This document shows, one piece after another, positions 3,366 to 25,289 of a stretch of 64,000 bases of DNA. Numbering within the stretch: the first letter of the stretch is position 1; the number at the start of each line of letters is the position of its first letter. Under the pieces are notes generated by a model that saw only the letters and a list, made by a program, of their open reading frames with translations, was not told the origin of the DNA and did no database searches. The DNA is from a virus: IMG/VR virus record IMGVR_UViG_3300025137_000018, positions 32,001 through 96,000 of that record, one strand, 5' to 3'. A program made the translations under genes and the position numbers.

Positions 3366-3394
3366 TGTACATATGCAGTAAAGTATGGTATAAT
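3366..3394 (+). promoter_or_regulatory. Sigma70-type promoter for gp43
   Basis: TGTACA-N17-TATAAT with TG extended -10. Confidence 0.85.
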
Positions 3395-3419: not shown

Positions 3420-5933
3420 ATGAATTTTTATACTAATGTCGGCCGATATGGCAATATGCTACTCTATCGTGGTATCGAAAACGGTAATCGAGTAAGCAGA
3501 AAAGTAAAATACAAACCAACCTTGTACGTCGCTACAAGTAAACCTACAGATTGGACAGCATTGGATGGAACACCAGTTGCACCAGTCACACAATTCGAAT
3601 CTATGCGTGATGCTAAAGATTGGATTGGTTTAAACAAAGAAGTTTCAGGCAGAAAAATATACGGAAACAACCGTTATATTTCTACGTTTATAAACGAAAA
3701 GTTTCCAGGAGATATTAAATTTGATCGTAACGCAATTAACGTTACTACAATCGATATCGAAGTCGCATCAGATGACGGGTTTCCTGAACCAGATGTAGCC
3801 TCAAAAGAAGTTACTGCTATCTGTATTAAAAACAATATTGACAATACTTATTACGTGTGGGCATTAAGAGATTACGATGTAAATCAATCTATTATGCAAA
3901 CAAATCGTGTCGTGTATAAAAAATGCGATACTGAAGGTCAACTACTTCTAGACTTTATAACACATTGGTCATCACCAACACATTGCCCAGATGTTGTTAC
4001 TGGTTGGAACTCAAGATTCTTTGATATTCCATACCTTGTAAACAGAATTAATAATTTACTAGGTTCTGACTGGGTTAAAAAGTTATCACCTTGGGGATTA
4101 ATTGATTCACGTGATGTTACTATTATGGCTCGTAAGCAAACTGCATACGAAATTGCTGGTATATCTCAACTTGATTATATGGAACTATTTAAGAAGTTCG
4201 GTTACTCATACGGTGCACAAGAATCCTATTCACTTAATCATATATCACATGTTGTTCTAGGCGAGAAGAAACTTTCTTACGAAGAACACTCAAGTTTATT
4301 TAGTTTATACTTAAACGATCATCAAAAGTTTATTGATTACAATATTAAAGATGTTGAATTAGTCGATAGGATCGAAGATAAACTTGGTCTTATTACACTA
4401 GCTCTAACTATGGCTTATCGCGGTGGTGTTAACTATGGTGATACATTTGGAACTACAGCGATATGGGATTCTATTATTTACAGGGATCTTTCAACTCAGA
4501 AAATTGCAGTTCCATTTCAAGAAGATAAAGTAAAAACACCGTATCCTGGAGGATATGTTAAAGATCCACAAGTTGGAATACATGATTGGGTAGTATCATT
4601 TGATTTAAATTCACTATATCCATCGTTAATTATGCAATACAATATGTCACCAGAAACAATAGCCTCTGGTGAATTATCTGATTATGATGTTGACAGTATT
4701 CTTAAAAGCAATACAATTGTAGATAACAGAGGAAAGGCTGTAAGTGCAAATGGCCAATATTTTAATATCGATAAAAAGGGCATCTTGCCTAAAATCATTG
4801 AACAGATGTATGGAGAACGTGTTCAAATTAAAAAGGCTATGATTAAAGCACAAAAAGAATTACAGAAGGTAGATAAAAATGATAAACAAGAAGTATACAG
4901 AATTGAAAGGGATATTGCAATCAACGAAAACAGGCAAATGTCTATTAAAATTCTCCTTAATTCTCTTTATGGTGCTCTTGGCAACAAGTACTTCAGATTT
5001 TTCGATCAACGAATTGCCGAAGGAATTACACTCTCCGGACAACTTACAATACGATGGGCTGAAGAAGCTATCAATACATATCTCAATAAAGTGCTCAAAA
5101 CGAAAAAAGATTACGTCTTGGCCATCGACACCGATTCGGTGTATGTATGCTTAAACGACCTAGTTAAAGCGGTTAACCCTAGTAATCCTATTGATTTTCT
5201 AGACACAGTCTGTAGAGAAAAGCTAGAACCTGTTCTTGAAGAAGCATATAAAAAGTTATATAGTATCATGGGTGGTATCGAAAACAAAATGGTCATGGGA
5301 CGAGAAGTAATTGCTGATCGTGGTCTTTGGACAGCAAAGAAAAGATATATTCTTAATGTGCATGATAATGAAGGTGTACGATATGCAGAGCCTAAACTTA
5401 AAATTATGGGCATTGAAGCTATTAAATCTTCTACACCAGCACCATGTCGAGAAGCACTAAAAGAAATATTTAAAGTTATTATGCATTCATCTGAATCTGA
5501 TGTACAAAAATCTATTGAGCATTTCAGACAATACTTCAGAACACTAGAACCAAACAATATTGCGTTCCCTAGGGGAATAACCAATCTTACATCGTTTCAA
5601 GACAGAAACACAATTTACAAAAAAGGCACTCCAATACATGCTCGTGGCGGAATACTTTACAACAAATTAATCGATGATCTATCGCTAGGTAAGCGATATA
5701 ACAAAATCAATAATGGCGAAAAGATTAAATTCATTTATCTTAGAACGCCTAATCCTATAAAGGAAAATGTTATATCATTCCTAGATTATCTTCCAACGGA
5801 GTTTGGATTGAATAAATATATTGATCACGAAACCCAATTTCAAAAAACTTTCCTAGATCCTATCGAACCAATACTCGATGCGATTGGTTGGTCTTCAAAA
5901 GAGGTATCTACGCTAGATGAGTTTTTTGGATAA
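3420..5933 (+). CDS. 43: Family B DNA polymerase gp43
   Basis: DIEV exonuclease, SFDLNSLYPS, KILLNSLYG, DTDS motifs; C-terminal TLDEFFG clamp-binding tail. Confidence 0.98.
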   Translation: MNFYTNVGRYGNMLLYRGIENGNRVSRKVKYKPTLYVATSKPTDWTALDGTPVAPVTQFESMRDAKDWIGLNKEVSGRKIYGNNRYISTFINEKFPGDIKFDRNAINVTTIDIEVASDDGFPEPDVASKEVTAICIKNNIDNTYYVWALRDYDVNQSIMQTNRVVYKKCDTEGQLLLDFITHWSSPTHCPDVVTGWNSRFFDIPYLVNRINNLLGSDWVKKLSPWGLIDSRDVTIMARKQTAYEIAGISQLDYMELFKKFGYSYGAQESYSLNHISHVVLGEKKLSYEEHSSLFSLYLNDHQKFIDYNIKDVELVDRIEDKLGLITLALTMAYRGGVNYGDTFGTTAIWDSIIYRDLSTQKIAVPFQEDKVKTPYPGGYVKDPQVGIHDWVVSFDLNSLYPSLIMQYNMSPETIASGELSDYDVDSILKSNTIVDNRGKAVSANGQYFNIDKKGILPKIIEQMYGERVQIKKAMIKAQKELQKVDKNDKQEVYRIERDIAINENRQMSIKILLNSLYGALGNKYFRFFDQRIAEGITLSGQLTIRWAEEAINTYLNKVLKTKKDYVLAIDTDSVYVCLNDLVKAVNPSNPIDFLDTVCREKLEPVLEEAYKKLYSIMGGIENKMVMGREVIADRGLWTAKKRYILNVHDNEGVRYAEPKLKIMGIEAIKSSTPAPCREALKEIFKVIMHSSESDVQKSIEHFRQYFRTLEPNNIAFPRGITNLTSFQDRNTIYKKGTPIHARGGILYNKLIDDLSLGKRYNKINNGEKIKFIYLRTPNPIKENVISFLDYLPTEFGLNKYIDHETQFQKTFLDPIEPILDAIGWSSKEVSTLDEFFG

Positions 5934-5937
5934 ACAC

Positions 5938-5966
5938 TGTACATTTAATATAAAATATGGTATAAT
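5938..5966 (+). promoter_or_regulatory. Sigma70-type promoter
   Basis: TGTACA-N17-TATAAT, extended -10. Confidence 0.85.
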
Positions 5967-5986: not shown

Positions 5987-6283
5987 ATGAAAGATGAATA
6001 TAAATTAGTACGACTATCTTCTGGTGAAGAAGTGGTCGGTAAAGTTACACAAAATGAAGAATCAATTACCATTACAGATGGTTATTCTTTGATTCCAGCA
6101 GGTGAAGGTAAAATTGGCTTCATGCCATTTATGGCTTATACAAAAGCAGCAGAAGGTATTACTATTCCAAATAGTTTTATTCTATTTACTGTTGATCCAA
6201 TAGATGAACTAGTAGATCAAGTTAAAGCTATGAGCAGTCCAATTCAAGTGCCAGAAAAGCAAGGAATTATTACAAATGTCTAA
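5987..6283 (+). CDS. Conserved T4-like hypothetical protein (Sm-like fold)
   Basis: KLVRLSSGEEVVG N-terminus, common in T4-like phages; RBS. Confidence 0.7.
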   Translation: MKDEYKLVRLSSGEEVVGKVTQNEESITITDGYSLIPAGEGKIGFMPFMAYTKAAEGITIPNSFILFTVDPIDELVDQVKAMSSPIQVPEKQGIITNV

Positions 6284-6677
6284 GAATTGGGTAGAAGATA
6301 TTCATTTAATGCAAAGCAAATATCTTACTAGACAATGGGTTGAAAATAATCCTGAGAAACTAAAAAAGTTTCTTGAGTTTAGAGTTGAGTTTTTAAAAGA
6401 AGAACTAATGGAAACAAAAGCTGCGGTTACTAATAATGATCCAGAAGAAATAGTAGATGGTTTAATTGATCTATGTGTTGTTGCTATTGGTACACTTGAT
6501 GCATTTGGTGTTAATCCCTATAAAGCTTGGGATGCTGTACTAGAAGCTAATATGAACAAAGAAGTAGGACAAAAGCCAACTAGGCCAAATCCACTAGGAG
6601 TTCCAGACCTAATTAAACCTGAAGGTTGGACCGCTCCATCACACGCAGAGAATCATGGTAAGTTTAACGATATTTAA
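6276..6677 (+). CDS. MazG-like nucleotide pyrophosphohydrolase
   Basis: EELME...EIVDGLIDL, ANMNK, DLIKPEGW motifs. Confidence 0.85.
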   Translation: MSKNWVEDIHLMQSKYLTRQWVENNPEKLKKFLEFRVEFLKEELMETKAAVTNNDPEEIVDGLIDLCVVAIGTLDAFGVNPYKAWDAVLEANMNKEVGQKPTRPNPLGVPDLIKPEGWTAPSHAENHGKFNDI

Positions 6678-7572
6678 CAGTATATACGATAACAAAACTG
6701 ATAAAAGCATTACATATAAATCATTTGATGATTTTGAAAAAATATTGTATCAGTTATCGGAAAGTACTAAATATCCAACTAAAAAATCAGCACCATTAAT
6801 ATCTCCAGCAACTTATGTACCGGAGACAACTCGTGCAAACGATAATGTTCTTAGTTGGGGTGGTTTTGGAATCGTAGATGTAGATGATTATATTGGAAGT
6901 ATCGATGATATTTCTGAGGTGTATAGCGAATACAAATACGTATGTTATTCCACTGCTAGCTCGACTGAAGAACACCCTAAGTTTCGTTTAGTATTTCCAC
7001 TAACAAGAGCTATAAATAAAGATGAAATCAAACATTTTTGGTACGCATTAAATAAAGAGATAGGAGATATCGCAGATGCCCAAACAAAAGACCTCAGCAG
7101 AATGTATTACGTCCCAGCCAAATATAAAGGATCTTACAATTTCATATTCTCACACGATGGATCTACCATGGACCCCGCAAAACTTATGGAAAAACACAGA
7201 TACGTCGTACCAAATGAATCGTTTTTCGATAAGTTACCAGAAGCTATTAAAAAAGGTCTTATACAACATCGACAAGCAAAACTCGATAACACTAACTTTT
7301 CATGGACAGGATATCAAGACTGCCCTTTTATAAACAAAAAACAAATTGAAGAATACAAAACTTTATCAGGTGCTGGCTGGTATTACAAACTATATCAGAT
7401 AATGGTTTCAATAGCAGGTAATGCAATGTCTAAGGGTTATCCAATAACATCTAAAGAAATTGAATATATCATTAGAGATCTCGATGCAAACACTGGAAAT
7501 TGGTACGCAAAAAGACCAATTAATAAAGAAGCTGAAAGAGCTATTGAATTTATTTTTAAAAACAATATATAG
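6655..7572 (+). CDS. AEP/PrimPol-type primase-like protein
   Basis: DVDD acidic motif, YSTASS...PKFRLVFPL, KDLSRMYYVP; no DnaG zinc ribbon or TOPRIM motifs. Confidence 0.7.
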   Translation: MVSLTIFNSIYDNKTDKSITYKSFDDFEKILYQLSESTKYPTKKSAPLISPATYVPETTRANDNVLSWGGFGIVDVDDYIGSIDDISEVYSEYKYVCYSTASSTEEHPKFRLVFPLTRAINKDEIKHFWYALNKEIGDIADAQTKDLSRMYYVPAKYKGSYNFIFSHDGSTMDPAKLMEKHRYVVPNESFFDKLPEAIKKGLIQHRQAKLDNTNFSWTGYQDCPFINKKQIEEYKTLSGAGWYYKLYQIMVSIAGNAMSKGYPITSKEIEYIIRDLDANTGNWYAKRPINKEAERAIEFIFKNNI

Positions 7573-7581
7573 GAGTATATT

Positions 7582-8142
7582 ATGGAACAACTTTTTCACA
7601 AACACATTATTAAAATAACAGGTATTATTTGTTTACCTTTATTACTAGCTTTCTTTTTTTCAAAAGTTCAAGCCGAAGATCATAACTATACATGGCATGG
7701 TCATACTATGGAATTAAACCCAGAATTACAAGATTCACAATACTGTTTGGCCAAGAACATTTATTTTGAAGCTGGTAATCAACCAGTTGCTGGTAAAATT
7801 GCAGTCGCACAAGTAGTTCAGAATAGAGTTATAAACAAAAATTATCCAAATAATATTTGTGATGTTGTATATCAAGCAAAATTAAAAGAAAATTGGAAAG
7901 GTAATCTTATTCCAGTTAGGCATATGTGCCAGTTCAGTTGGTTCTGTGACGGTAAATCAGATGATCCAGTTGATAGTGCAACTTGGATGTTTTCTTTATT
8001 AGTTGCTGATTCCGTTATGAATGGAGAGTATGGCGATATTACCGAAGGGGCAACTCACTACCATGCAGACTCAGTATATCCTTATTGGGCTGAGTCTTTA
8101 AATCAAACAGTTATAATCAACAATCACACGTTTTATAAATAG
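7582..8142 (+). CDS. SleB-like cell wall hydrolase
   Basis: CLAKNIYFEA, VAQVVQNRV, CQFSW, GATHYHA; N-terminal TM/signal. Confidence 0.92.
   Translation: MEQLFHKHIIKITGIICLPLLLAFFFSKVQAEDHNYTWHGHTMELNPELQDSQYCLAKNIYFEAGNQPVAGKIAVAQVVQNRVINKNYPNNICDVVYQAKLKENWKGNLIPVRHMCQFSWFCDGKSDDPVDSATWMFSLLVADSVMNGEYGDITEGATHYHADSVYPYWAESLNQTVIINNHTFYK
8134..8141 (+). promoter_or_regulatory. T4-type late promoter
   Basis: TATAAATA just upstream of the groES-like gene. Confidence 0.7.
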
Positions 8143-8159
8143 ATAATAGGAGAATAATT

Positions 8160-8411
8160 ATGAAAATGATTGGAACAAACGTCTTAGTAACAGAGACAGC
8201 AAAGGAAGATACTACTGCAGGTGGTATCATTTTAACAGCAGATACGACCAAAGGGTCTAAACCCGCACTAGTACTTTTAGTAGGACCAGATGTAGTTGAT
8301 GTAGCCAAAGGAGATAGAGTATATCTTGATTGGCCAAATGCTATGCCAGTAGATATAGAAGGAAAGGCCGGTGCAATAATCGATATGGAACATATCAAGG
8401 CAGTAGTATAA
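8160..8411 (+). CDS. groES: Co-chaperonin GroES-like
   Basis: TTAGGIIL mobile loop, VGPDV..V..GDRV. Confidence 0.85.
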   Translation: MKMIGTNVLVTETAKEDTTAGGIILTADTTKGSKPALVLLVGPDVVDVAKGDRVYLDWPNAMPVDIEGKAGAIIDMEHIKAVV

Positions 8412-8833
8412 TGTATACTTATAACGTAACAGTAACAAGAATAGTAGATGGAGATACAGTCGACGTAGATGTCGATTTAGGCTTCGGAATGGTTTATAAA
8501 AAGCAAAGAGTAAGAATGCTAGGTATTGATACACCTGAATCTAGAACTAGAAATCTAGAAGAAAAGTATTACGGTAAACAATCAAAGTATTTCTTAGAAA
8601 GTTTATTAAAGGATGCTGATGTAAGATTAGTATCACATGATAAAGGAAAATTTGGTAGAATTCTAGGTGAACTATTTATTTATGGAAACATGGATAAATC
8701 TGTAAATCAGATAATGATTGATAACTATCATGCAGTACCATACTTTGGTCAATCCAAAGATGATACTGAACAAGGACACTTGTGGAATAAGCAAGCTCTA
8801 AATGAACAAGGTATTATATATCAACCAAAATAA
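8411..8833 (+). CDS. Thermonuclease (SNase-like)
   Basis: RIVDGDTVD, RMLGIDTPE, GKFGRILG; ATG 8411 overlaps the groES stop. Confidence 0.9.
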   Translation: MYTYNVTVTRIVDGDTVDVDVDLGFGMVYKKQRVRMLGIDTPESRTRNLEEKYYGKQSKYFLESLLKDADVRLVSHDKGKFGRILGELFIYGNMDKSVNQIMIDNYHAVPYFGQSKDDTEQGHLWNKQALNEQGIIYQPK

Positions 8834-8845
8834 TCAAAAAAAGTG

Positions 8846-8874
8846 TGTACAATTGAATAAAACTATGGTATAAT
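8846..8874 (+). promoter_or_regulatory. Sigma70-type promoter heading the DNA-modification operon
   Basis: TGTACA-N17-TATAAT, extended -10. Confidence 0.85.
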
Positions 8875-8900
8875 AGTACTATAAACAGAAAGGTTATATT

Positions 8901-9239
8901 ATGAAAGAATCACTAAAAGTATTACAAGAATGTGCCGAACTTCAGGCCAAGAAAAGTAATGACTATCAAAATCCAAACTCCAGGATTAAACAAGCAGATT
9001 ATTACCCTCGCGGTGTAGCTTCAATCCTGGATATTATCCATGCTAAAACACTCAGAATGTTCTCAGTACTAGAAGCTATGGAATCAGATCCCAATTACAA
9101 CCCTAACTTTGAATCACTAGAAGACTCTGGTAAAGATTTAATTAACTATGCTTCGTTTATGGTTGCATATATGAGAGGTGGAATCGACGGCCAATCAGAA
9201 AACAATGACTTTTTAAATAGGAACAAAAATGAATCTTGA
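8901..9239 (+). CDS. Nucleotide-modification-associated domain protein (Nmad1/DUF1599-like)
   Basis: KKSNDY ... K.LR ... EDS..DLINYA all-alpha pattern; adjacent to the gp42-like gene. Confidence 0.65.
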   Translation: MKESLKVLQECAELQAKKSNDYQNPNSRIKQADYYPRGVASILDIIHAKTLRMFSVLEAMESDPNYNPNFESLEDSGKDLINYASFMVAYMRGGIDGQSENNDFLNRNKNES

Positions 9240-9894
9240 AATAGATCAATTAAGAACTTACTTTAGTAACGAACTTCGTAATGAAAGATTTACGGTGGAC
9301 AGAAATGGTAGTAAAACAATTGAACTAATTGGTGCTTCGTTTTATGCTGATGAACCAGCTATATATGGTGTTCCAAACAAAGCTTATATTGATGCAGAAC
9401 TAAATTGGTACAACAGCCAATCTACAAACATTAATGATATCTATTTAGATAGCGATAAAGAACCACCAGCAGCATGGAAGATGACTGCTAACGAACACGG
9501 TGAGATTAATTCAAATTATGGTCATTTAATTTATTCTGATAAGTATGGTGCACAGTTTGATATGGCACTAACTGAATTGTTACAAAATCCAGATTCACGT
9601 AGAGCATCAATGATCTATACACGACCAAGTATATGGTGTGAATATAATGAAAATGGTAAAAACGACTTTATATGTACAAACTCTGTTACATACTATATCC
9701 GTGAAGGTAAACTAAATTGTGTAGTACAAATGCGATCTAATGATGTTATCTTTGGTTATCGTAATGATTATGCATGGCAAAAAGCAGTACTTGATGATAT
9801 GGCAGGAATGCTAACAATATCTCCAGGCGAAATCGTTTGGCAAGTACAAAACTTACATGTATACGAAAGACATTTTGATTTGGTAAATGCATGA
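9229..9894 (+). CDS. 42: dCMP hydroxymethylase-like (T4 gp42 family, thymidylate synthase fold)
   Basis: DFICTNSV catalytic Cys and MRSNDVIFGYRNDYAWQ, matching T4 gp42 with the cytosine-specifying Asp. Confidence 0.88.
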   Translation: MNLEIDQLRTYFSNELRNERFTVDRNGSKTIELIGASFYADEPAIYGVPNKAYIDAELNWYNSQSTNINDIYLDSDKEPPAAWKMTANEHGEINSNYGHLIYSDKYGAQFDMALTELLQNPDSRRASMIYTRPSIWCEYNENGKNDFICTNSVTYYIREGKLNCVVQMRSNDVIFGYRNDYAWQKAVLDDMAGMLTISPGEIVWQVQNLHVYERHFDLVNA

Positions 9895-10334
9895 ACAATA
9901 AATGGGACAATAGATACTTAAACCTAGCAAGGGAAGTTTCAACTTGGTCAAAAGATCCAAGTACTCAAGTAGGTGCAGTAGCAATTGGAGAAATGGGGCA
10001 AGTATTAGCACAAGGTTACAATGGATTCCCTAGGGGTGTTAATGATTCTCTTGAAAGATATAACGATAAAGAAGTTAAATACCGATACGTAGTTCATGCA
10101 GAAATGAATTGTATCTATAATGCTACATTTACTGGAGCATCTCTAAACAATGCTACAATGTATGTTTGGGGTTTACCAGTTTGCAATGAATGTGCAAAGG
10201 GTTTAGCTCAAGTTGGAGTTAAGAGAGTAGTATCACCTAAGACGATTGCAGATGTACCAGACAAATGGAAGATATCAGCAATTAACACAGTTGATTTATT
10301 AAAGGAGGTTGGTATAACATATGACTTCATTTAA
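9891..10334 (+). CDS. cd: dCMP deaminase
   Basis: SKDPSTQVGA, HAEMN, PVCNEC zinc motifs. Confidence 0.93.
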   Translation: MNNKWDNRYLNLAREVSTWSKDPSTQVGAVAIGEMGQVLAQGYNGFPRGVNDSLERYNDKEVKYRYVVHAEMNCIYNATFTGASLNNATMYVWGLPVCNECAKGLAQVGVKRVVSPKTIADVPDKWKISAINTVDLLKEVGITYDFI

Positions 10335-10575
10335 TGAACAATTACTGTATAAGAAAAATAGAAATAACTCTAAGTTTAAAGATTATACTAAGGAAGATTT
10401 AGAAAATCGTATCGAAAATTTTCAAAAAGATTTAGCTAGATTACACGTACTTAATGCTCCAGAATCAATAAAACAAAATACACAAAATATGCTTGGAGAG
10501 ATTGTAAAAGAATATAAGCTGAGATATGATAAAGGTGAATTTCAATACACAGGAGAAATCTCAAAAAATGGTTGA
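10321..10575 (+). CDS. Hypothetical protein
   Basis: GGAGG RBS, coupled ORF inside the operon. Confidence 0.6.
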   Translation: MTSFNEQLLYKKNRNNSKFKDYTKEDLENRIENFQKDLARLHVLNAPESIKQNTQNMLGEIVKEYKLRYDKGEFQYTGEISKNG

Positions 10576-10867
10576 TTACACACAAGAAGAATTAGCTAAT
10601 TCTAAAAGAATTTTTAAATCGGCAACACCTAAGTATACTTTAGATTGGTATATTAAATGGGTAGCATCAATTGTGGTTTTAGCTGCAATGTCAATACGAG
10701 GTGTCGAAGGATTTCAAATATGGGACTTAGGTCTTAGTGTCATAGGAATATTTCTATGGTTAATAGTATCGGTTTTATGGAAAGATAGAGCACTCATTTT
10801 ATTAAATGGTGCTGGATTATTTTTATTAATAAAAAACTTAGTAACGCATTTAGTAAACGGAGGATAA
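10568..10867 (+). CDS. Hypothetical membrane protein (3 TM)
   Basis: AGGAG RBS before ATG 10568; three hydrophobic helices. Confidence 0.7.
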   Translation: MVDYTQEELANSKRIFKSATPKYTLDWYIKWVASIVVLAAMSIRGVEGFQIWDLGLSVIGIFLWLIVSVLWKDRALILLNGAGLFLLIKNLVTHLVNGG

Positions 10868-11701
10868 ATGGAACACTTAATTATACCTACATTAGGTAGG
10901 ATGGATAAACAAAGAACTTACGATAACTTACCAGAAAAGTATCAAAAACTGGTAAAATTTATAGTTCAAGATCATGAGTACGCTCCTATGAGAGAGCGAT
11001 ACGGAGATGCTGTAGTAAAACTACCTAAAGAAATTTCTAGGTTATCGCCAACACGACAATGGATATGGGACGAGTTTTATAGCACAAAGCACATGGTCTT
11101 AGACGATGACTTTGAGTACTTTAAATATAAAGGCCCAGCACCTGAAGGTATGGACACTAAATGGGAAACCAAGGATATGACAGAAGAAGAGTTTGATGAT
11201 GCTTTTGCCACATTCGACAAATGGATAAAAGAAGAAAAAATTTATCATGGCGGATTCTCAACATCTTGGGTTGTACCAGATCTAAAGTATTGGCCACATC
11301 AAAATAACGTAAGGATTATGACCAACTGTTATTTTGATTCTAAAAATTTACCAAGAAATCTTATATGGGATAGGTTAGAAACTTCTCAAGATTTTGATGC
11401 TAATCTTCAATTGCTTACTCAAGGGTTTGCAAATAGGATTACCACGAGGTATCGTGTTAGCGTAACAGCAACTAACACAGCAGGTGGTTGTTCAAATTAT
11501 AGAACAATTGAATTAAGTAATAAAGTGCATCAGCAATTAGCTGAAATTTATCCAGATTATGTTGCTCTAAAAAGCAAGGTATTGGCTAACGGACCATGGA
11601 AAGGACAAGACAGAATTACTTGTCATATTAGCTGGTCAAAAGCTTATAAAGATGCAATTAAAAAACAACAAGAATCAAGTTTGGAGACATTTTTCGGATG
11701 A
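10868..11701 (+). CDS. DNA glycosyltransferase-like (GT-A; TET-associated / glucosyl-hmC transferase family)
   Basis: IIPTLGR start, MVLDDD metal motif, QDFD, AGGCS; C-terminal SLETFFG. Confidence 0.75.
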   Translation: MEHLIIPTLGRMDKQRTYDNLPEKYQKLVKFIVQDHEYAPMRERYGDAVVKLPKEISRLSPTRQWIWDEFYSTKHMVLDDDFEYFKYKGPAPEGMDTKWETKDMTEEEFDDAFATFDKWIKEEKIYHGGFSTSWVVPDLKYWPHQNNVRIMTNCYFDSKNLPRNLIWDRLETSQDFDANLQLLTQGFANRITTRYRVSVTATNTAGGCSNYRTIELSNKVHQQLAEIYPDYVALKSKVLANGPWKGQDRITCHISWSKAYKDAIKKQQESSLETFFG

Positions 11702-12906
11702 AACACGCAGGTATAGTACCACTAATTGGTGGTGAAATTTTGGCATCAGCAGATGCTTATGGAACAGACCCAGAATATTTAATGACATATTCTGGATTTA
11801 TGGCTAATGAAACACACCTTTTAAATTATTATAAGGAACAAGGAAAGGATATTCCGTATCATGTTTTAGATGAAACGTCCGAAAAAATGAAGAATGTGGA
11901 CATTGTTTCCTCAGTTTGTCCATGTGCTGGATTAAGTACTTATCATAACTCACACGGTGAACAGAACGAAAACAATCAGTGGATGGAAAAATCATCTGAA
12001 TATGTTTTAAAGGAAGTTAAACCAAAGGTATTATGGGGAGAGAACGCACCAGGATTATCTGGAAAGATTGGTAAATTTATGAGAGAAAAGCTCTATAAGA
12101 TCGGCCAAGATAATGGATATAACTTTTCAATTTATTTAACTAAAAGTTTACAGCATGGTAATCCACAGTACCGTAAAAGAACATTCTTTTTCTTTTGGAA
12201 AAAAGATGAATTTAACGATAGGATTCCATTATTTAATTATTATAATAAAGAAAGACCTATGATTCAAGATCTAATTAAAGGCGTTGATACTAACTTTCAA
12301 ACACAGGTATTAAATACTAAAACACCTTCGCAGGATGATCCATATTATAAGTACACCTTAGAAGTTGAATCTAAATGTACTCATGCTGAATTTGTTGAAA
12401 GACATTCACACGAGGAAAAATCTATTAATGTAGAATCTAGGTTAATGAAACTTGGTCATGATCATCTTAAACTTGCTGAATGGATGGATCAATATCCTCA
12501 ATTTGAAAGAGAAGCTGCAAAGGCTAGACGTAAAGCTGGAAAGATTGCATCAGGCGGTGGAATCATGCTTAGAGGTACAATTATTCCAATTAATTACATT
12601 GGTGCATTCGTTGTACATTTACCTAAAGTTATTGCACACCCAACAGAAGATAGATACTTAAATGTTGCTGAAGGGAAAGCTATTATGGGATTACCTTTGG
12701 ATATGGAAGTGCTAGATGTTGAAAAGAATTATAATCATATTTGCCAAAACGTTCCATTTGCTACAGCAAGGGATATGGCAGTAGAGGTTAAATCAGTATT
12801 AGAAGGTAAAAGAGATAGTGTTGAAACTACCTACTTATTCCAAAATAATTTAAACAGAAGTTATGATTATAAAAGAGAAGAAAATAGTTTAGAGGCGTTC
12901 TTATGA
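11698..12906 (+). CDS. C5-cytosine DNA methyltransferase-like protein
   Basis: PC (VCPCAGLS), ENAP, PQYRKR, RYLNVAE..IMGLP, QNVP motifs; motif I degenerate (PLIGG). Confidence 0.8.
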   Translation: MKHAGIVPLIGGEILASADAYGTDPEYLMTYSGFMANETHLLNYYKEQGKDIPYHVLDETSEKMKNVDIVSSVCPCAGLSTYHNSHGEQNENNQWMEKSSEYVLKEVKPKVLWGENAPGLSGKIGKFMREKLYKIGQDNGYNFSIYLTKSLQHGNPQYRKRTFFFFWKKDEFNDRIPLFNYYNKERPMIQDLIKGVDTNFQTQVLNTKTPSQDDPYYKYTLEVESKCTHAEFVERHSHEEKSINVESRLMKLGHDHLKLAEWMDQYPQFEREAAKARRKAGKIASGGGIMLRGTIIPINYIGAFVVHLPKVIAHPTEDRYLNVAEGKAIMGLPLDMEVLDVEKNYNHICQNVPFATARDMAVEVKSVLEGKRDSVETTYLFQNNLNRSYDYKREENSLEAFL

Positions 12907-13679
12907 AAATCTTATTAACAGGAAGCAAAAGCGGGCCAAGAAAAGGTTTTATTGCAAGTAGATTTGCTAAGAAATTTAAAGATGAATATGATATTGTAGA
13001 GTACACTGCAGACATTAGAAATGCAGAAGGTATCATTGTAAGTGATTTTGATTTAGTAATACATCTTGCAGCACTAGCTGGTGTTAGAAGATCTCACGAA
13101 ATTCCTCAAGAATATTGGAAAACAAATGTAACTGCATCTAAATATATTTTTGAAGCTTGTGAAAAAGCTAATGTTCCAATCATATATGCTTCATCATCTA
13201 GTGTTTACGAATGGTGGTTATCTCCTTATGCTTCTACTAAGTATGCTATGGAGGCTATAGCACCTAAGAACTCTATTGGATTAAGATTCCATACGGTATA
13301 CGGTCCTAACAGCAGGCCAGATATGTTATACGATGCACTTTTAAGAAAAGATCCTAAGTTAACTTATTTAACTAATCACACAAGAGATTGGACTCATGTA
13401 GATGATGTATGTAATGCTATAGATATTTGCATAACATATTTTGATCGTATAGTTCATCATAAAGCAATTGATGTTGGTAATGGTAAACCTGTTACAGTAA
13501 AAGAAATGGCTGATAAAGTTTGGCCAGAGAATAATTTACCACTAAAAGAAGTTACTGGTGAACGACAAGATACATGTGCTGATCCATCAATTTTAACTAA
13601 ATACGGTTGGGTTGCTAATCACCATGTATTAGAAGAAACAACAAAACAATTAGAATTAAACTCGGAAGGTATTATATAA
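12903..13679 (+). CDS. NAD-dependent epimerase/dehydratase (extended SDR)
   Basis: ILLTG...GFIA, HLAA, ASSSSVY, YASTK, RDWTHVDD. Confidence 0.9.
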   Translation: MKILLTGSKSGPRKGFIASRFAKKFKDEYDIVEYTADIRNAEGIIVSDFDLVIHLAALAGVRRSHEIPQEYWKTNVTASKYIFEACEKANVPIIYASSSSVYEWWLSPYASTKYAMEAIAPKNSIGLRFHTVYGPNSRPDMLYDALLRKDPKLTYLTNHTRDWTHVDDVCNAIDICITYFDRIVHHKAIDVGNGKPVTVKEMADKVWPENNLPLKEVTGERQDTCADPSILTKYGWVANHHVLEETTKQLELNSEGII

Positions 13680-14533
13680 TGAAATTAGCAATTATAGGAC
13701 ATGGCTTTGTAGGTAAAGCAGTTGATTATGGATTTAGTAATCAGTTAGTAAAAAAGAAAATTATAGATCCAAACTATGGCCATAATAATAACGATCAACG
13801 CAAATTAAAAGATTGGAAACCTGATGTAATTTTTGTGTGTGTTCCTACACCTATGGGCAACGATGGTAATATCAATAGTAGTATTTTAAAATCTGTAATG
13901 GATAATCTTGATGAATGTGTAAAAGAAACATTAATTGTAATTAAATCAACTGTTACACCAGATGTAATAAGTAACTATAAATATTGGAATAACGTAGTAT
14001 ATAATCCAGAGTTTTTAACAGAAAAATCAGCATGTGAACAATTTGTAAATCCTGAGTTTCATATCTTTGGTGGTGAGTCATATAATACTGAAAAGTTAGA
14101 AGAATATTATGAAAAATATAGTTTATGTACTCCATGCCCATCTTATCATATGAACCATGAAGAAGCTTCTTTGGTTAAATACTCAATCAATTCATTCCTA
14201 GCAACTAAGATTACGTTTTTTAATCAACTCTACGATCTGTGCAGAATTAACGGCAATGTTAATTTCAATACTATTATTAAAGCAGTTGGTGCTGATAATA
14301 GAATTGCACCATCGCATACTAAAGTTCCAGGATTTGATGGAAAGCAAGGATACGGCGGTGCATGTTTTCCTAAAGATACTTTGGCTTTTGCAAAATTCAG
14401 CAATGAACTTTCTCTCTTAGCTAAAGCAATTGAGATAAACAATGATTATAGATCTCAATACGAAAGAGACGAAAGAGAAAAAGAACAAAATATTCAATTT
14501 AACCATGTACATTCAACCAAAAGTATGGTATAA
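13679..14533 (+). CDS. UDP-glucose/GDP-mannose 6-dehydrogenase family
   Basis: [30 protein letters not shown]. Confidence 0.92.
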
Positions 14534-14534
14534 T
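14506..14534 (+). promoter_or_regulatory. Sigma70-type promoter for the bS21-uvsX-41 operon
   Basis: TGTACA-N17-TATAAT. Confidence 0.85.
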
Positions 14535-14559: not shown

Positions 14560-14817
14560 ATGCCAAGCGTAGATTTAAGACCTCGTAAGAGGCACCCAAA
14601 AGACAAAAGACCATCAACCGAAATGCCATTCGATGTTGCTCTTAGAAAATTTAGAAAAGCAGTTGAAAGAGCTGGAACTCTTCAGGATATAAGACGAAAA
14701 GAGTTTTATGAAAAGCCAACTGCTAAAAAGAAAAGGAAAAAAGCAGAAGCCTTAGCCAGATGGCGTAAAAAAGAACGCTCCATGCAATTAAGACCAGAAC
14801 GTGGTCGAGGAAAATAA
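14560..14817 (+). CDS. rpsU: Ribosomal protein bS21
   Basis: [17 protein letters not shown]...[10 protein letters not shown]. Confidence 0.93.
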
Positions 14818-20807: not shown

Positions 20808-22049
20808 ATGAAGACACTTAAACAAACCTTATCGGAAGCCGCAGGTAAGAACACTCATATGACACATATTGAAGATCTTATTTTGGACGGTGGAGTTAAG
20901 GGAGCACGCCAAGCAATCCTTGCCCTAAGATCACTAAGGGATATGTTAAGCGGTAACGCCAAATCAGCTGTAGACGTTACTGTTAAATGGGACGGTGCTC
21001 CCGCCGTATTTGCTGGTATTGATCCAGGCGATGGAGAATTTTTTGTTGCTAAAAAAGGTATCTTTAATGCAAACCCTAAGGTATATAAATCACATGCTGA
21101 TATTGATGCTGATACTTCAGGCGATTTATCTACAAAATTAAAATTAGCATATGACACTTTTAAAGATCTTGGAATAACTAATGTTATACAAGGTGATTTT
21201 ATGTTTGATAAAAGCGATTTAAAAACAGAAAACATTGGTGGTATAAAACACATAACGTTCCATCCAAATACAATTGTATATGCAGTACCAGTTGGTAGTC
21301 AACTTGCTAAAGATATTACATCTGCAAAGGTTGGAGTAGTATGGCACACAGTTTATACAGGTGCTACATTTGAAACAATGTCAGCTGAGTTCGGAAAAGA
21401 AATAGTACCTAAATTAAAGCCATCTAAAAATGTTTGGATGGTCGATGCAACACTTCCTGATATGTCAGGTACAGCAACATTTACGGCGAAGGAAACTGAA
21501 CAAGTAACTTCACATTTATCTCAAGCAGGTAAAACATTTAAACAAATATCAGGTTCTACATTAAAAGAAATAGAATCTAATAAAGAATTAAACCTTGTGA
21601 TTAATACATTTAATAACACAAAGGTAAGAGCTAACGAAAGAATTAAAGATACTAAAAGACATGTATCAGAATTAATAGTATGGGTTAATAATAGATACCA
21701 AAAGGAAATTGATAAAAGATCATCTCAGAAGGGTAAAGATACTCAAATCGCTAAAAGAAATGAATTATTAAAGTTTTTTAGTAAATCTAATCAAAAAAAC
21801 TTAGAAAAAGTGTTTAATTTACAGAATAATGTGGTGGATGCAAAATTAATTATTATAAATAAACTAAATGGTCTTAACAATATAGGAACGTTCCTTAAGA
21901 CTAAAACCGGATTTAAAGCAACCAACCCAGAAGGTTTTGTTGCAATAGATCGTATGGAAGGTGGCGCGGTCAAGTTAGTTGACAGATTAGAATTCTCAAC
22001 TAATAACTTCGACCCAAATATTATAAAAGGCTGGCAGAATCCAGGCTAA
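20808..22049 (+). CDS. ATP-dependent ligase/nucleotidyltransferase-like protein
   Basis: KWDG (motif I), QGD, EGFV (motif IV), VKLV (motif V); N-terminus MKTLKQTLSE. Confidence 0.6.
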   Translation: MKTLKQTLSEAAGKNTHMTHIEDLILDGGVKGARQAILALRSLRDMLSGNAKSAVDVTVKWDGAPAVFAGIDPGDGEFFVAKKGIFNANPKVYKSHADIDADTSGDLSTKLKLAYDTFKDLGITNVIQGDFMFDKSDLKTENIGGIKHITFHPNTIVYAVPVGSQLAKDITSAKVGVVWHTVYTGATFETMSAEFGKEIVPKLKPSKNVWMVDATLPDMSGTATFTAKETEQVTSHLSQAGKTFKQISGSTLKEIESNKELNLVINTFNNTKVRANERIKDTKRHVSELIVWVNNRYQKEIDKRSSQKGKDTQIAKRNELLKFFSKSNQKNLEKVFNLQNNVVDAKLIIINKLNGLNNIGTFLKTKTGFKATNPEGFVAIDRMEGGAVKLVDRLEFSTNNFDPNIIKGWQNPG

Positions 22050-24401: not shown

Positions 24402-24628
24402 AAACATTTAAAGAACTCAGAGAAAAGAAAAGCGAATCTTGGGAAGCAGGATATAAAAGAAGAGTTGTAAAAACAACTAAGCCTGAGCACAAAGAAAAAG
24501 GTTATGAATGGAGAATTAAAGGTAAAGAAAAAGATCATTTATCTATTAAGTTATATAAGACTAAACCATCACAATCAGAATTTAATAAGCAAATGAAAAG
24601 AGTTGCAGGCCATGAGTTCGGTGGATAG
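24398..24628 (+). CDS. Hypothetical protein, candidate internal protein
   Basis: MKTFKELRE N-terminus. Confidence 0.65.
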   Translation: MKTFKELREKKSESWEAGYKRRVVKTTKPEHKEKGYEWRIKGKEKDHLSIKLYKTKPSQSEFNKQMKRVAGHEFGG

Positions 24629-25289
24629 TTTTAAAGAACATTATAATATTATGGAAGGTATTAATGATCCTTCTATTTTTAAAGCAGTATTCCTAGCAGG
24701 TGGTCCAGGTTCTGGAAAATCATTTGTTGTAGGTAAAACATCATTAGCGTCATTAGGGTTTAAACTTATAAACACAGATACTAATTATGAAAATGCTCTT
24801 AAAAAGGCTGGACTTACAATGGAGCCAGAATCTATATTTTCTGCTCAAGGCCAAGCATTAAGAGATAAAGCTAAAGCTCTTACTGGTAAACAGTTAACTT
24901 TAGCATTAAAGGGAAGATTAGGAGTAGTTATAGATGGAACTGGTAAAGATTACGCTAAAATAAAAGCTAATGTTGATCAGTTTAGATCTATAGGATACGC
25001 TGTACATATGATATTTGTTAATACTGATTTAGAAACTGCATTAATAAGAAATAATAGCAGAGAAAGAGTATTACCAGATGATCAAGTAGAAAAAATGTGG
25101 AAATCAGTACAGAAAAATATTGGTAAATTCCAAGGGCTTTTTCGTAATAGAATGACAGTAATAGATAACTCAACGGATGCAGATATTAACACATCCACCT
25201 TAGAGGCTTATAAGAATATACAACAGTGGGCTAAGAAACCACCAGAAAATTCATTAGCAGTTAAGTGGATAAATGGACAAAAAAAATGA
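24612..25289 (+). CDS. P-loop kinase (zeta toxin / AAA_33-like)
   Basis: LAGGPGSGKS, VVIDGTG, RN..RER; DSFKEHYNIME N-terminus. Confidence 0.8.
   Translation: MSSVDSFKEHYNIMEGINDPSIFKAVFLAGGPGSGKSFVVGKTSLASLGFKLINTDTNYENALKKAGLTMEPESIFSAQGQALRDKAKALTGKQLTLALKGRLGVVIDGTGKDYAKIKANVDQFRSIGYAVHMIFVNTDLETALIRNNSRERVLPDDQVEKMWKSVQKNIGKFQGLFRNRMTVIDNSTDADINTSTLEAYKNIQQWAKKPPENSLAVKWINGQKK

Follow-up and report, generated by a model that had tools for sequence, protein, structure and literature searches.

The glucosylated 5-hydroxymethylcytosine (5hmC, hmC) system of the T-even phages (gp56, gp42, gp1, Cd and the alpha- and beta-glucosyltransferases) makes 5-hydroxymethyl-dCMP (hm-dCMP) before replication, has a dCMP deaminase alongside, and adds the sugar after replication. 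The same plan is predicted for the locus described here, a nine-gene operon at positions 8846-14533 of a 64,000-nucleotide stretch of viral DNA, called the window throughout (bases 32001-96000 of one 126,379-bp virus contig, IMG/VR record IMGVR_UViG_3300025137_000018, GC 34.7%). The operon is a variant, seen at the level of its genes, of a known way for phages to hide their DNA from bacterial nucleases. Compared with the T-even system, no gp56-type dCTPase was identified and a MazG-like and an Nmad1-family protein stand in its stead; there is a single, putatively GT-A-type glycosyltransferase (GT) with a clamp-type tail, belonging to a PHROG annotated as the T2/T6 second-sugar transferase; and the module includes its own UDP-glucose dehydrogenase (UGD), an epimerase and a protein resembling a C5-methyltransferase (MTase-like). 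The sugar is probably not glucose. From its genes, by which alone it is known here, we give about even odds that the operon is a two-stage module that hypermodifies cytosine with hmC and a hexuronic acid.

A second relative is the set of phage clusters of methyltransferase (MT), TET and GT genes reassembled in Escherichia coli by Pyle, Lund, O'Toole and Saleh (bioRxiv 10.1101/2023.12.21.572611; this and the other papers are cited for those parts of them that were available). Their 'subclass II' combines a GT with a sugar epimerase, and both contig 57 (epimerase and GT) and contig 91 (GT alone) gave hexuronic acid on 5hmC (HexA-5hmC, 433 amu), at different retention times for the two contigs. 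Their GT-A enzymes resemble the trypanosome base-J glucosyltransferase (JGT-like; R...DDD...EDY/F), and mining with hidden Markov models returned about 25,000 GT contigs, some of them ThyS-associated with dCMP deaminase, methyltransferase and gp45 genes nearby. To judge by the published description, the window operon likewise pairs a GT, putatively of GT-A type, with an epimerase. In the window, however, 5hmC would be made by gp42 before replication and not by MT and TET afterwards (a Tet_JBP gene was not found in the contig), and the phage adds its own truncated UGD, a minimised epimerase, clamp tails and an MTase-like protein without TET, with QDF as the third GT motif. Because of this work neither an acidic sugar on 5hmC nor the logic of GT plus epimerase is new. 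The original prediction had spoken of a possibly undescribed base; this was too strong, as the HexA-modified 5hmC had already been made from phage GT-A and epimerase clusters. In a literature search of incomplete coverage only Pyle et al. combined hexuronic acid, 5hmC and phage, and no report of uronic-acid-hmC in native virion DNA was found.

In phages RB69, DLP3 and RL38JI (Lee et al., NAR 2026, PMC13326640) a thymidylate synthase homologue is likewise clustered with DNA GTs and phage genes for nucleoside diphosphate sugars. There, by contrast, the homologue carries D169N and gives 5-hydroxycytosine (5hoC), arabinose is supplied through an isomerase, a kinase and a nucleotidyltransferase, and the GTs are of GT-B type, whereas the window enzyme keeps the Asp. 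Bacillus phage SP-15 likewise has a UGD in its hypermodification cluster, and its product, phosphoglucuronolactone thymine, chemically contains a uronic acid. Its base is uracil-derived (dihydroxypentyluracil, DHPU), however, its GTs are GT-B or teichoic-acid-like, and its UGD is 29% identical to that of the window. The idea that the SP-15 enzyme is a short form, tying the short UGD family to uronic-acid DNA, was dropped as it is annotated at its full length of 436 amino acids (aa). Further sources are PMC5977210, PMC7029224, PMC7984243 and PMC12338863.

Operon layout and predicted synthesis of the modified nucleotide

An uncultured marine T4-like phage is the source of the contig, to which IMG/VR gives a linear topology and a completeness of about 70%. 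Almost all of its genes lie on the + strand and a T4-type replisome is encoded (family-B polymerase, UvsX, gp41, gp45 and gp55), with gp45 at contig positions 31096-31767. By polymerase identity the closest named phage is C48C1 (Kyanoviridae, 53%), with T4-like cyanophages next at 46-48%; a near-identity DNA search of phage records with the operon gave no match. The features of the operon, and one gene of the preceding unit, are listed below in window coordinates, with family matches as bits against the curated cut-off.

8846-8874, +: phage promoter TGTACA-N17-TATAAT (extended, TGTACA-N13-ATGGTATAAT) at the operon start, one of 19 copies in the contig
8901-9239, +: Nmad1 (DUF1599)-family protein, 112 aa (phrog_18404; PF07659 in orthologues)
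9229-9894, +: dCMP hydroxymethylase, T4 gp42 orthologue (Thymidylat_synt 67.7 against 24.3; 1b49, E 4.2e-70)
9891-10334, +: dCMP deaminase with HAE and PVCNEC zinc motifs (dCMP_cyt_deam_1, PF00383, 67.2 against 25; phrog_174, E 4.3e-41)
10321-10575, +: open reading frame (ORF) of 84 aa, matching only in 95-100% identical loci, with no credible family
10526-10867, +: DUF6552 small membrane protein (69.6 against 27)
10868-11701, +: TAGT-family DNA GT, 277 aa (TAGT, PF20691, 65.9 against 27.5; phrog_842, E 2.1e-35)
11698-12906, +: C5-cytosine-methyltransferase-fold protein (MTase-like), 402 aa (DNA_methylase 67.2 against 22; Foldseek, M.HhaI)
12903-13679, +: minimised extended short-chain dehydrogenase/reductase (SDR), 258 aa, UDP-glucuronate-4-epimerase-like (Epimerase 81.4 against 20.9; 6kv9, 5u4q, 6zl6)
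13679-14533, +: short nucleotide-sugar 6-dehydrogenase (UGD), 284 aa (UDPG_MGDP_dh central domain 65.9, N domain 57.1)
14506-14534, +: next promoter copy, which opens the bS21-uvsX-gp41 unit and closes the operon (promoter motif search)
6276-6677, +: MazG-like NTP pyrophosphohydrolase of the preceding unit (PRA-PH, PF01503, 43.7 bits; phrog_671)

The nine ORFs (8901-14533, all +) lie exactly where the original prediction had placed them, and family searches upheld its labels with three refinements. Successive ORFs overlap or abut, with start/stop junctions at 9229/9239, 9891/9894, 10321/10334, 10526/10575, 10867/10868, 11698/11701, 12903/12906 and 13679. The ratio of nonsynonymous to synonymous substitution (dN/dS) is 0.05-0.20 for all operon genes, purifying selection comparable to that on the polymerase. 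The 84-aa ORF at 10321 may not be a conserved gene. DUF6552 is conserved in the clade of 65-79% identity, and its homologue in C48C1 lies about 800 bp downstream of the TET cluster of that phage.

Promoter TGTACA-N13-ATGGTATAAT has 19 copies in the 126,379 bp (17 on the + strand, 2 on the -), each just upstream of a gene, and probably marks early or middle transcription units. Copies in the window include those at 3366, 5938, 8846, 14506, 17912, 31909, 36559, 38605, 41710, 58221, 58732, 59242 and 60988, among others, and they are often preceded by AAATGCA(G/A)AAAAC. The motif search of the contig gave copies at 8846 and 14506 and none between them, hence the nine genes form one promoter-bounded unit, as had been proposed. 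A generic sigma-70 scan showed no enrichment (41 sites found, 45.1 +/- 6.4 expected). Read-through into the operon from upstream is possible, as no terminator-like site was found by scan.

The gp42 orthologue aligns to T4 dCMP hydroxymethylase (1b49) over its whole length, E 4.2e-70. The catalytic Cys and the cytosine-selecting Asp were located by aligning the protein with 1b49 and with two mutant chains, 6l18 (D179N) and 6a9a (C148S), and by hand count Cys149, Asp146, Asp172 and Asp180 correspond to T4 Cys148, Asp145, Asp171 and Asp179. Both residues on which the gp42 label had first been based, the Cys nucleophile and the Asp of RND, are thus present, in FICTN (T4 C148) and in YRNDYAWQ (T4 D179, equivalent to E. 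coli N177D). Lee et al. (PMC13326640) showed that 5-hydroxy-dCMP is made, with a flavin, by many enzymes described as 'gp42-like', those of RB69, DLP3 and RL38JI among them; these 5hoC synthases are close kin of gp42, sharing with it N177D and L143D/E while D169N is diagnostic for them. Were the window enzyme one of these, it would make 5-hydroxy-dCMP and the sugar would sit directly on the C5 oxygen as in RB69. This is extremely unlikely. The window protein has NDFIC, with Asp at -3 from the Cys (the L143 position), and MRSND, whose T4-like spacing puts Asp and not Asn at E. coli D169; RSND is found in the window protein, in T4 gp42 and in 13/13 printed orthologues, and the similarity to T4 gp42 is far above that to MilA (E 4e-70 against 6e-4). 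Because Asp is retained at the position of E. coli ThyA D169, the predicted product is 5-hydroxymethyl-dCMP and not 5-hydroxy-dCMP, and orthology and residue signature together favour the chemistry first proposed for this gene, that of a 5hm-dCMP synthase.

In T4, Cd feeds dUMP to thymidylate synthase. By analogy the adjacent dCMP deaminase would most simply do the same, the synthase presumably being the host's; no second ThyA, ThyX or Tet_JBP was found in the contig. A P-loop kinase at 24603-25289 (AAA_33 and Zeta_toxin Pfam matches) is no more than a candidate nucleotide kinase and at most a possible gp1 equivalent. The original prediction had called the operon self-contained, which goes too far: for UDP-glucose, dTMP synthesis and nucleotide kinases it must draw on the host or on other parts of the phage genome.

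There are two candidates for the dCTPase role: the MazG-like protein encoded at 6276, and the Nmad1-family protein, perhaps as a partner or subunit of a dCTP/dCDP pyrophosphatase. The former had already been put forward for this role; the gene exists and the idea is plausible, the gene lying in the preceding unit under the promoter at 5938. The Nmad label holds at the family level, with PF07659 (Nmad1) matched in 5/7 orthologues (best E 7.4e-7); the window copy itself gives no match even at E<=5. The window copy does match phrog_18404 ('hydrolase', E 4.1e-12) through the C-terminal half of the profile, and in relatives the gene is directly upstream of gp42. On phrog_18404 (264 positions) the MazG-like protein covers 47-139 and the Nmad1-like protein 170-254, a split that, as a lead, hints at a fused protein in other phages and at cooperation of the two here. 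The protein upstream of gp42 in the related locus L022 (PF18909) had been taken as a homologue of the Nmad1 gene; profile comparison shows no similarity, and the two are different families in the same position. The names TAGT and Nmad reportedly come from Iyer et al. 2013.

The glycosyltransferase and its clamp-type tail

The GT matches TAGT (PF20691, the TET-associated glycosyltransferase family) at 65.9 bits against 27.5 over profile positions 3-205 of 205, and phrog_842, a PHROG annotated as T2/T6 beta-glucosyl-HMC-alpha-glucosyltransferase, at E 2.1e-35. Homologues are present in 615 phage records and often abut gp42, for example in Klebsiella and Serratia T4-like phages. Assigned by eye, the active-site motifs R...DDD...EDY/F would correspond to the invariant R11 and D79-D80-D81 and, for the third, to Q174-D175-F176, where Gln replaces Glu. 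The GT-A assignment made at the outset stands on the family and these motifs and is tentative; an AlphaFold2 model (mean pLDDT 51.6 from an 8-sequence alignment) did not confirm the fold. A sequence search of solved structures gave no relative of the GT.

Three of the 152 ORFs of the contig end, by a strict pattern, in a tail resembling [ST]xL[DE]xF[FL]G. They are the DNA polymerase, the GT and the MTase-like protein.

5910-5930, +: TLDEFFG at the C-terminus of the DNA polymerase, taken as the reference for clamp binding (kept in 11/11 orthologues)
11678-11698, +: GT C-terminal tail SLETFFG, putative gp45-clamp epitope (tail pattern, kept in 14/14 orthologues)
12886-12903, +: MTase-like C-terminal tail SLEAFL, putative clamp epitope (terminal in 14/15 orthologues)

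The residues preceding the tails vary, and in the single MTase-like exception the motif lies 8 residues before the C-terminus. The phage's own gp55 ends LELFMV. T4 gp43, gp55 and gp33 have acidic-hydrophobic C-termini that can stand in for one another as epitopes for the sliding clamp (PMC2988020). The same tail is found on non-homologous DNA modifiers of related phages, namely a GT of the T4 alpha-glucosyltransferase family (AGT) and an MTase-like protein in L117 and the Tet_JBP dioxygenases of C48C1 and L111, and also on two unknown proteins of related phages. Nmad1, gp42, the deaminase, the SDR and UGD have no clamp-type tail. The tail would thus mark the enzymes of these clusters that act on DNA (TAGT, AGT, TET and MTase-like) and not those working on nucleotides or sugar nucleotides. 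Given that the tail is common to them and the polymerase, the GT and the MTase-like protein probably ride the gp45 clamp and work on nascent DNA, and it is likely that hmC is glycosylated on DNA, at the replication fork. Sommer et al. 2004 reportedly deals with T4 alpha-glucosyltransferase and gp45.

The sugar enzymes and their linkage to the module

The best solved relatives of the SDR are MoeE5 (6kv9), 5u4q, deposited under another name, and Bacillus cereus BcUGAepi (6zl6), in keeping with the epimerase label first given to it. MoeE5 and BcUGAepi are characterised UDP-glucuronate 4-epimerases. In BcUGAepi the substrate carboxylate is held by T126, S127, S128 and T178 and that of the product by R185, and the decarboxylases UXS, UAXS and ArnA have Glu at position 128 (Borg and Nidetzky). 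From the 6zl6 alignment, counted by hand, S98-S99-S100, T131 and R138 of the SDR correspond to BcUGAepi 126-128, 178 and 185, and Y109 and K113 form YxxxK. The carboxylate binders being kept, with Ser at 128, epimerisation to UDP-galacturonate is favoured over decarboxylation to a pentose.

The route to UDP-xylose, too, starts with a UGD and then an SDR. The original prediction had allowed a uronic acid or a pentose, and a pentosyl-hmC would result if the SDR decarboxylated UDP-glucuronate to UDP-xylose, or on to arabinose; the gene order fits this route, and arabinosylated cytosines occur in RB69 and DLP3. However, the SDR aligns best to epimerases and has Ser98-Ser99-Ser100, Thr131 and Arg138 and no decarboxylase Glu, and the known phage arabinose route consists of an isomerase, a kinase and a nucleotidyltransferase with no UGD (PMC13326640). 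Thus a uronic acid stays plausible while a pentose is disfavoured and can be given only a very slight chance.

UGD has its catalytic C229 in GGACFPKD, and this, K167, N171 and NPEF are invariant in 8/8 family members. The label assigned at first holds for the NAD and central domains only, since the C-terminal UDP-binding domain is absent. The two-domain form is a large, mostly viral family with at least 539 relatives in IMG/VR by profile scan. SDR and UGD are real genes, their dN/dS of 0.12-0.20 indicating purifying selection like that on the polymerase. The full-length form of the SDR (about 315-345 aa expected) is present in L022, L025, L117 and C48C1; in L022 it matches 5u4q at E 1.3e-78 and is paired with a short UGD.

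Two scans of IMG/VR gave 43 loci, many from the same contigs, of which three (L022, L023 and L025) are rearranged. Loci that are long enough show the same operon in the same order with 57-100% protein identity for the conserved genes; the two small ORFs are absent in some clades. L022, L023 and L025 are from a different phage type, in which the module lies beside gp45/gp44 and the L022-type order is PF18909 protein, gp42, B12-radical-SAM enzyme, deaminase, unknown, GT, SDR, UGD, MTase-like. In L102-L108, L116, L117, L123 and L128 an AGT-family gene replaces TAGT directly before SDR-UGD-MTase-like. As both contexts keep it, the run of GT, SDR, UGD and MTase-like outlasts rearrangement and a swap of GT family. 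Radical-SAM enzymes, one of them B12-binding, lie between gp42 and the GT at L022:4437-6383 and at L117:5218-5952 and 6207-7067, which suggests extra chemistry on the base or the sugar.

From the short-UGD profile scan 80 of the at least 539 relatives were kept, and 31 of these loci, not de-duplicated, are well flanked (>=6 kb upstream and 1 kb downstream). gp42 is present in 19/31: ten with TAGT, SDR and MTase-like, four with AGT, SDR and MTase-like, one with AGT only, two with SDR and a 344-aa protein, X67, and two with SDR only. Among the others, one has Tet_JBP and SDR, three have SDR only and eight have none of these. All five examined records that are at least 60% complete and have UGD (the present contig, G001, G005, C48C1 and G007) carry gp42 or Tet_JBP; C48C1, L111 and G007 lack gp42 and have Tet_JBP, that is, a hydroxymethyl-pyrimidine route.

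Several results weigh against a hexuronic acid on the base. The GT sequence gives no readout of donor specificity, and its structural model is of the low confidence already noted. The SDR lacks the canonical GxxGxxG spacing, the window reading TGSKSGPRKGFIA with an insertion, and it has deletions of about 25 residues after the glycine motif (the beta2 NAD-ribose region) and about 13 before the Tyr, with a shortened C-terminus. UGD stops about 100-200 residues short of the end of chains of 393-494 aa, its TIGR03026 score of 139.2 is below the NCBIfam cut-off of 189.8, and PF03720, the UDP-binding domain, was not found anywhere in the contig. Both enzymes being truncated, their activity on UDP-sugars is putative. 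In most of the 80 kept loci, by a wide margin, UGD is found a short way upstream of uvsX, and 11/31 well-flanked loci have neither gp42 nor TET within 10 kb, 8 of them having no SDR either. In C48C1 SDR and UGD occupy this place too, and the 146 kb compared contain no gp42, GT or MTase-like gene. The interval beside UGD holds Kdo-8-P synthase and CMP-Kdo synthetase in L075, and TET, an amidotransferase, a GNAT and a 5hmU-kinase-like P-loop kinase in L111. Short UGD is therefore a general gene of this phage group in a hypervariable interval, and its adjacency to the GT is non-specific, proves little and may reflect no more than where the hypervariable island lies. A published pelagimyophage analysis treats UGD as an auxiliary gene related to lipopolysaccharide (LPS), and the DUF6552 membrane protein would suit a surface glycan better than DNA. 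Absences within the contig are weak evidence since it is only about 70% complete.

These results could be accommodated if the base were plain glucosyl-hmC made from host UDP-glucose, with UGD and SDR as backbone or auxiliary genes by their insertion site, serving host envelope or LPS sugar metabolism or draining UDP-glucose. The phage homologues of the GT are annotated as glucosyltransferases, which agrees with this, as do the position beside uvsX, the arrangement in C48C1, the published LPS view and the truncation of both enzymes. Against it, GT, SDR and UGD stay contiguous after rearrangement and GT-family replacement, and no glycosyltransferase of another family that could use up the product came to light: family searches gave no GT2, GT8, GT1 or AGT gene in the 126-kb contig, and nothing above the family cut-off for GT2 or GT8 in five related records. 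C48C1, L111 and G007, which lack gp42, still have Tet_JBP, and among the 11 loci without gp42 or TET nearby the sole large record (110 kb) has Tet_JBP elsewhere, the other 10 being fragments of 5-22% and uninformative. Epimerase-dependent HexA-5hmC also has a precedent (Pyle et al.). On balance plain glucose is rather unlikely, and a hexuronic acid as the sugar is judged a matter of roughly equal chances for and against.

The lost UDP-binding parts could be explained in another way if the GT added glucose and the truncated UGD and SDR then oxidised and epimerised the sugar on the DNA, their substrate no longer being a nucleotide sugar. This would agree with a UGD whose UDP-binding domain is missing from the protein and was not found in the contig, with the size of the mostly viral short family and with the shortened SDR of this clade. 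However, UGD and SDR lack the clamp-type tail of the DNA-acting enzymes, and the L022 and L117 types pair a short UGD with a full-length, typical UDP-glucuronate epimerase. We know of no precedent for such tailoring by a UGD or SDR, which also counts against it. This explanation is very unlikely, and the supply of a UDP-hexuronic acid to the GT is retained below.

The interval upstream of uvsX, after the primase-like gene described below where that is detected, looks like a hypervariable island for DNA hypermodification. In loci L066-L131 it contains gp42 with TAGT, gp42 with radical-SAM enzymes and AGT, a TET set or a Kdo set; UGD, having been the search query, is common to all of these loci. 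In C48C1 (OQ984149.1 49583-53030; L003:3583-7030) a Tet_JBP dioxygenase, whose tail is SLEEFFV, precedes X67 and a UDP-galactopyranose mutase, and this stretch looks like a TET-route glyco-hypermodification cluster. X67 also occurs in L094, L095 and L098, flanked by the deaminase and the SDR, and may be a DNA glycosyltransferase that has so far escaped recognition.

The methyltransferase-fold protein and the proposed pathway

The top Foldseek match of the MTase-like protein is M.HhaI (E 1.9e-9, model pLDDT 69). P75-C76, E115-N116-A117, Q157/R159/R161 and Q350-N351-V352-P353 are invariant in 9/9 sequences; we take these to be motifs IV (PC), VI (ENV), VIII (QxRxR) and X in C5-methyltransferase numbering. 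Motif I for S-adenosylmethionine (AdoMet), FxGxG, is replaced, by IVPLIGGE in the window and by (I/V)PL(I/V)GG across the family, including cyanophage S-TIM5 and Pseudoalteromonas phage XG4, and the Pfam DNA_methylase match starts only at profile position 50. There are 2256 relatives at E<=1e-3. The protein is present in 14/31 well-flanked loci and always with gp42 (14/14). One solved relative, 8yf3, is a carboxymethyltransferase using carboxy-SAM. In S-TIM5 the MTase-like gene adjoins an ordinary full-length ThyA.

A C5 methylase would have no substrate if replacement by hmC were complete, a further difficulty for the module as proposed. Either replacement is partial and the MTase-like protein methylates leftover C, or it carries out other C6/C5 chemistry on 5hmC. 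C5-methyltransferases acting on 5hmC have reportedly been described by Liutkeviciute et al. Since motif I is replaced family-wide, chemistry without AdoMet or with another cofactor would fit. The stronger proposal is that the protein is no cytosine methylase and that Cys76 and Glu115 perform covalent C6 chemistry on 5hmC or its glycoside, perhaps without AdoMet or with a different cofactor, giving an undescribed cytosine derivative in addition to the uronic-acid sugar; we consider this doubtful, with a small chance of being correct. Compatible with it are the constant company of gp42, the cluster in XG4 described next, the number of relatives (more than 2000), the purifying selection and the use of carboxy-SAM by 8yf3.

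The record of phage XG4 (PP712099.1 100-6580; L050) carries no annotation. Its cluster consists of a gp42-type enzyme (RSCD/FPND), a nucleotidyltransferase fusion of 559 aa, a GT-B-like protein, an unknown protein of 368 aa and, at its close, a member of the same MTase-like family. It is a third kind of cytosine glycosylation cluster with an MTase-like protein. A DUF6267 protein (346 bits) at window 20808-22049 also occurs a few kb from the XG4 cluster (L050:10132-11235).

Other neighbours of the operon are as follows. Just upstream lie a cell-wall hydrolase (Hydrolase_2) with a signal-like N-terminus at window 7582-8142, a Cpn10/GroES homologue at 8160-8411 and a staphylococcal-nuclease-like gene at 8330-8833. 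The primase-like gene at 6655-7572 (305 aa) has no Pfam or NCBIfam match; it shares 46% identity with a gene of C48C1 that is labelled 'DNA primase', and many relatives have it in the syntenic position behind the polymerase. The uvsX-gp41 unit opens at 14560-14817 with a bS21 homologue (PF01165, 54.8 bits) that has a basic N-terminal extension.

The hexuronic-acid module would work in two stages. In the first, dCTP and dCDP may be converted to dCMP by the MazG-like protein at 6276, the Nmad1-family protein or both. The gp42 orthologue, going by orthology and its residue signature, would convert dCMP to hm-dCMP, while the deaminase would turn some dCMP into dUMP, from which the host would make thymidylate. 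Phosphorylation of hm-dCMP by kinases would yield hm-dCTP, which the phage polymerase would incorporate. In the second, the TAGT-family GT, held at the gp45 clamp through SLETFFG, would glycosylate 5hmC in the new DNA. The donor is most likely a UDP-hexuronic acid: UDP-glucuronate would arise by oxidation of host UDP-glucose by the short UGD, and UDP-galacturonate by its epimerisation by the SDR. The product would be galacturonosyl- or glucuronosyl-hmC, an acidic and bulky base expected to block restriction and Cas nucleases, and the MTase-like protein, predicted to be tethered to the clamp, is a constant partner of gp42 and GT modules.

If this is true, the base seen so far only from MT/TET clusters reconstituted in E. 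coli would have a natural counterpart made before replication by the gp42 route, and marine T4-like phages of an abundant group would carry uronosyl-hmC. Placing a negative charge on the sugar of each cytosine would alter DNA packaging, sensitivity to nucleases and CRISPR, and sequencing behaviour. Two large enzyme families are of note in themselves, the two-domain UGD without a UDP-binding domain and the C5-methyltransferase-like proteins with an altered cofactor motif, and these families, the clamp tail as a marker and the island upstream of uvsX may prove more useful than the operon itself.

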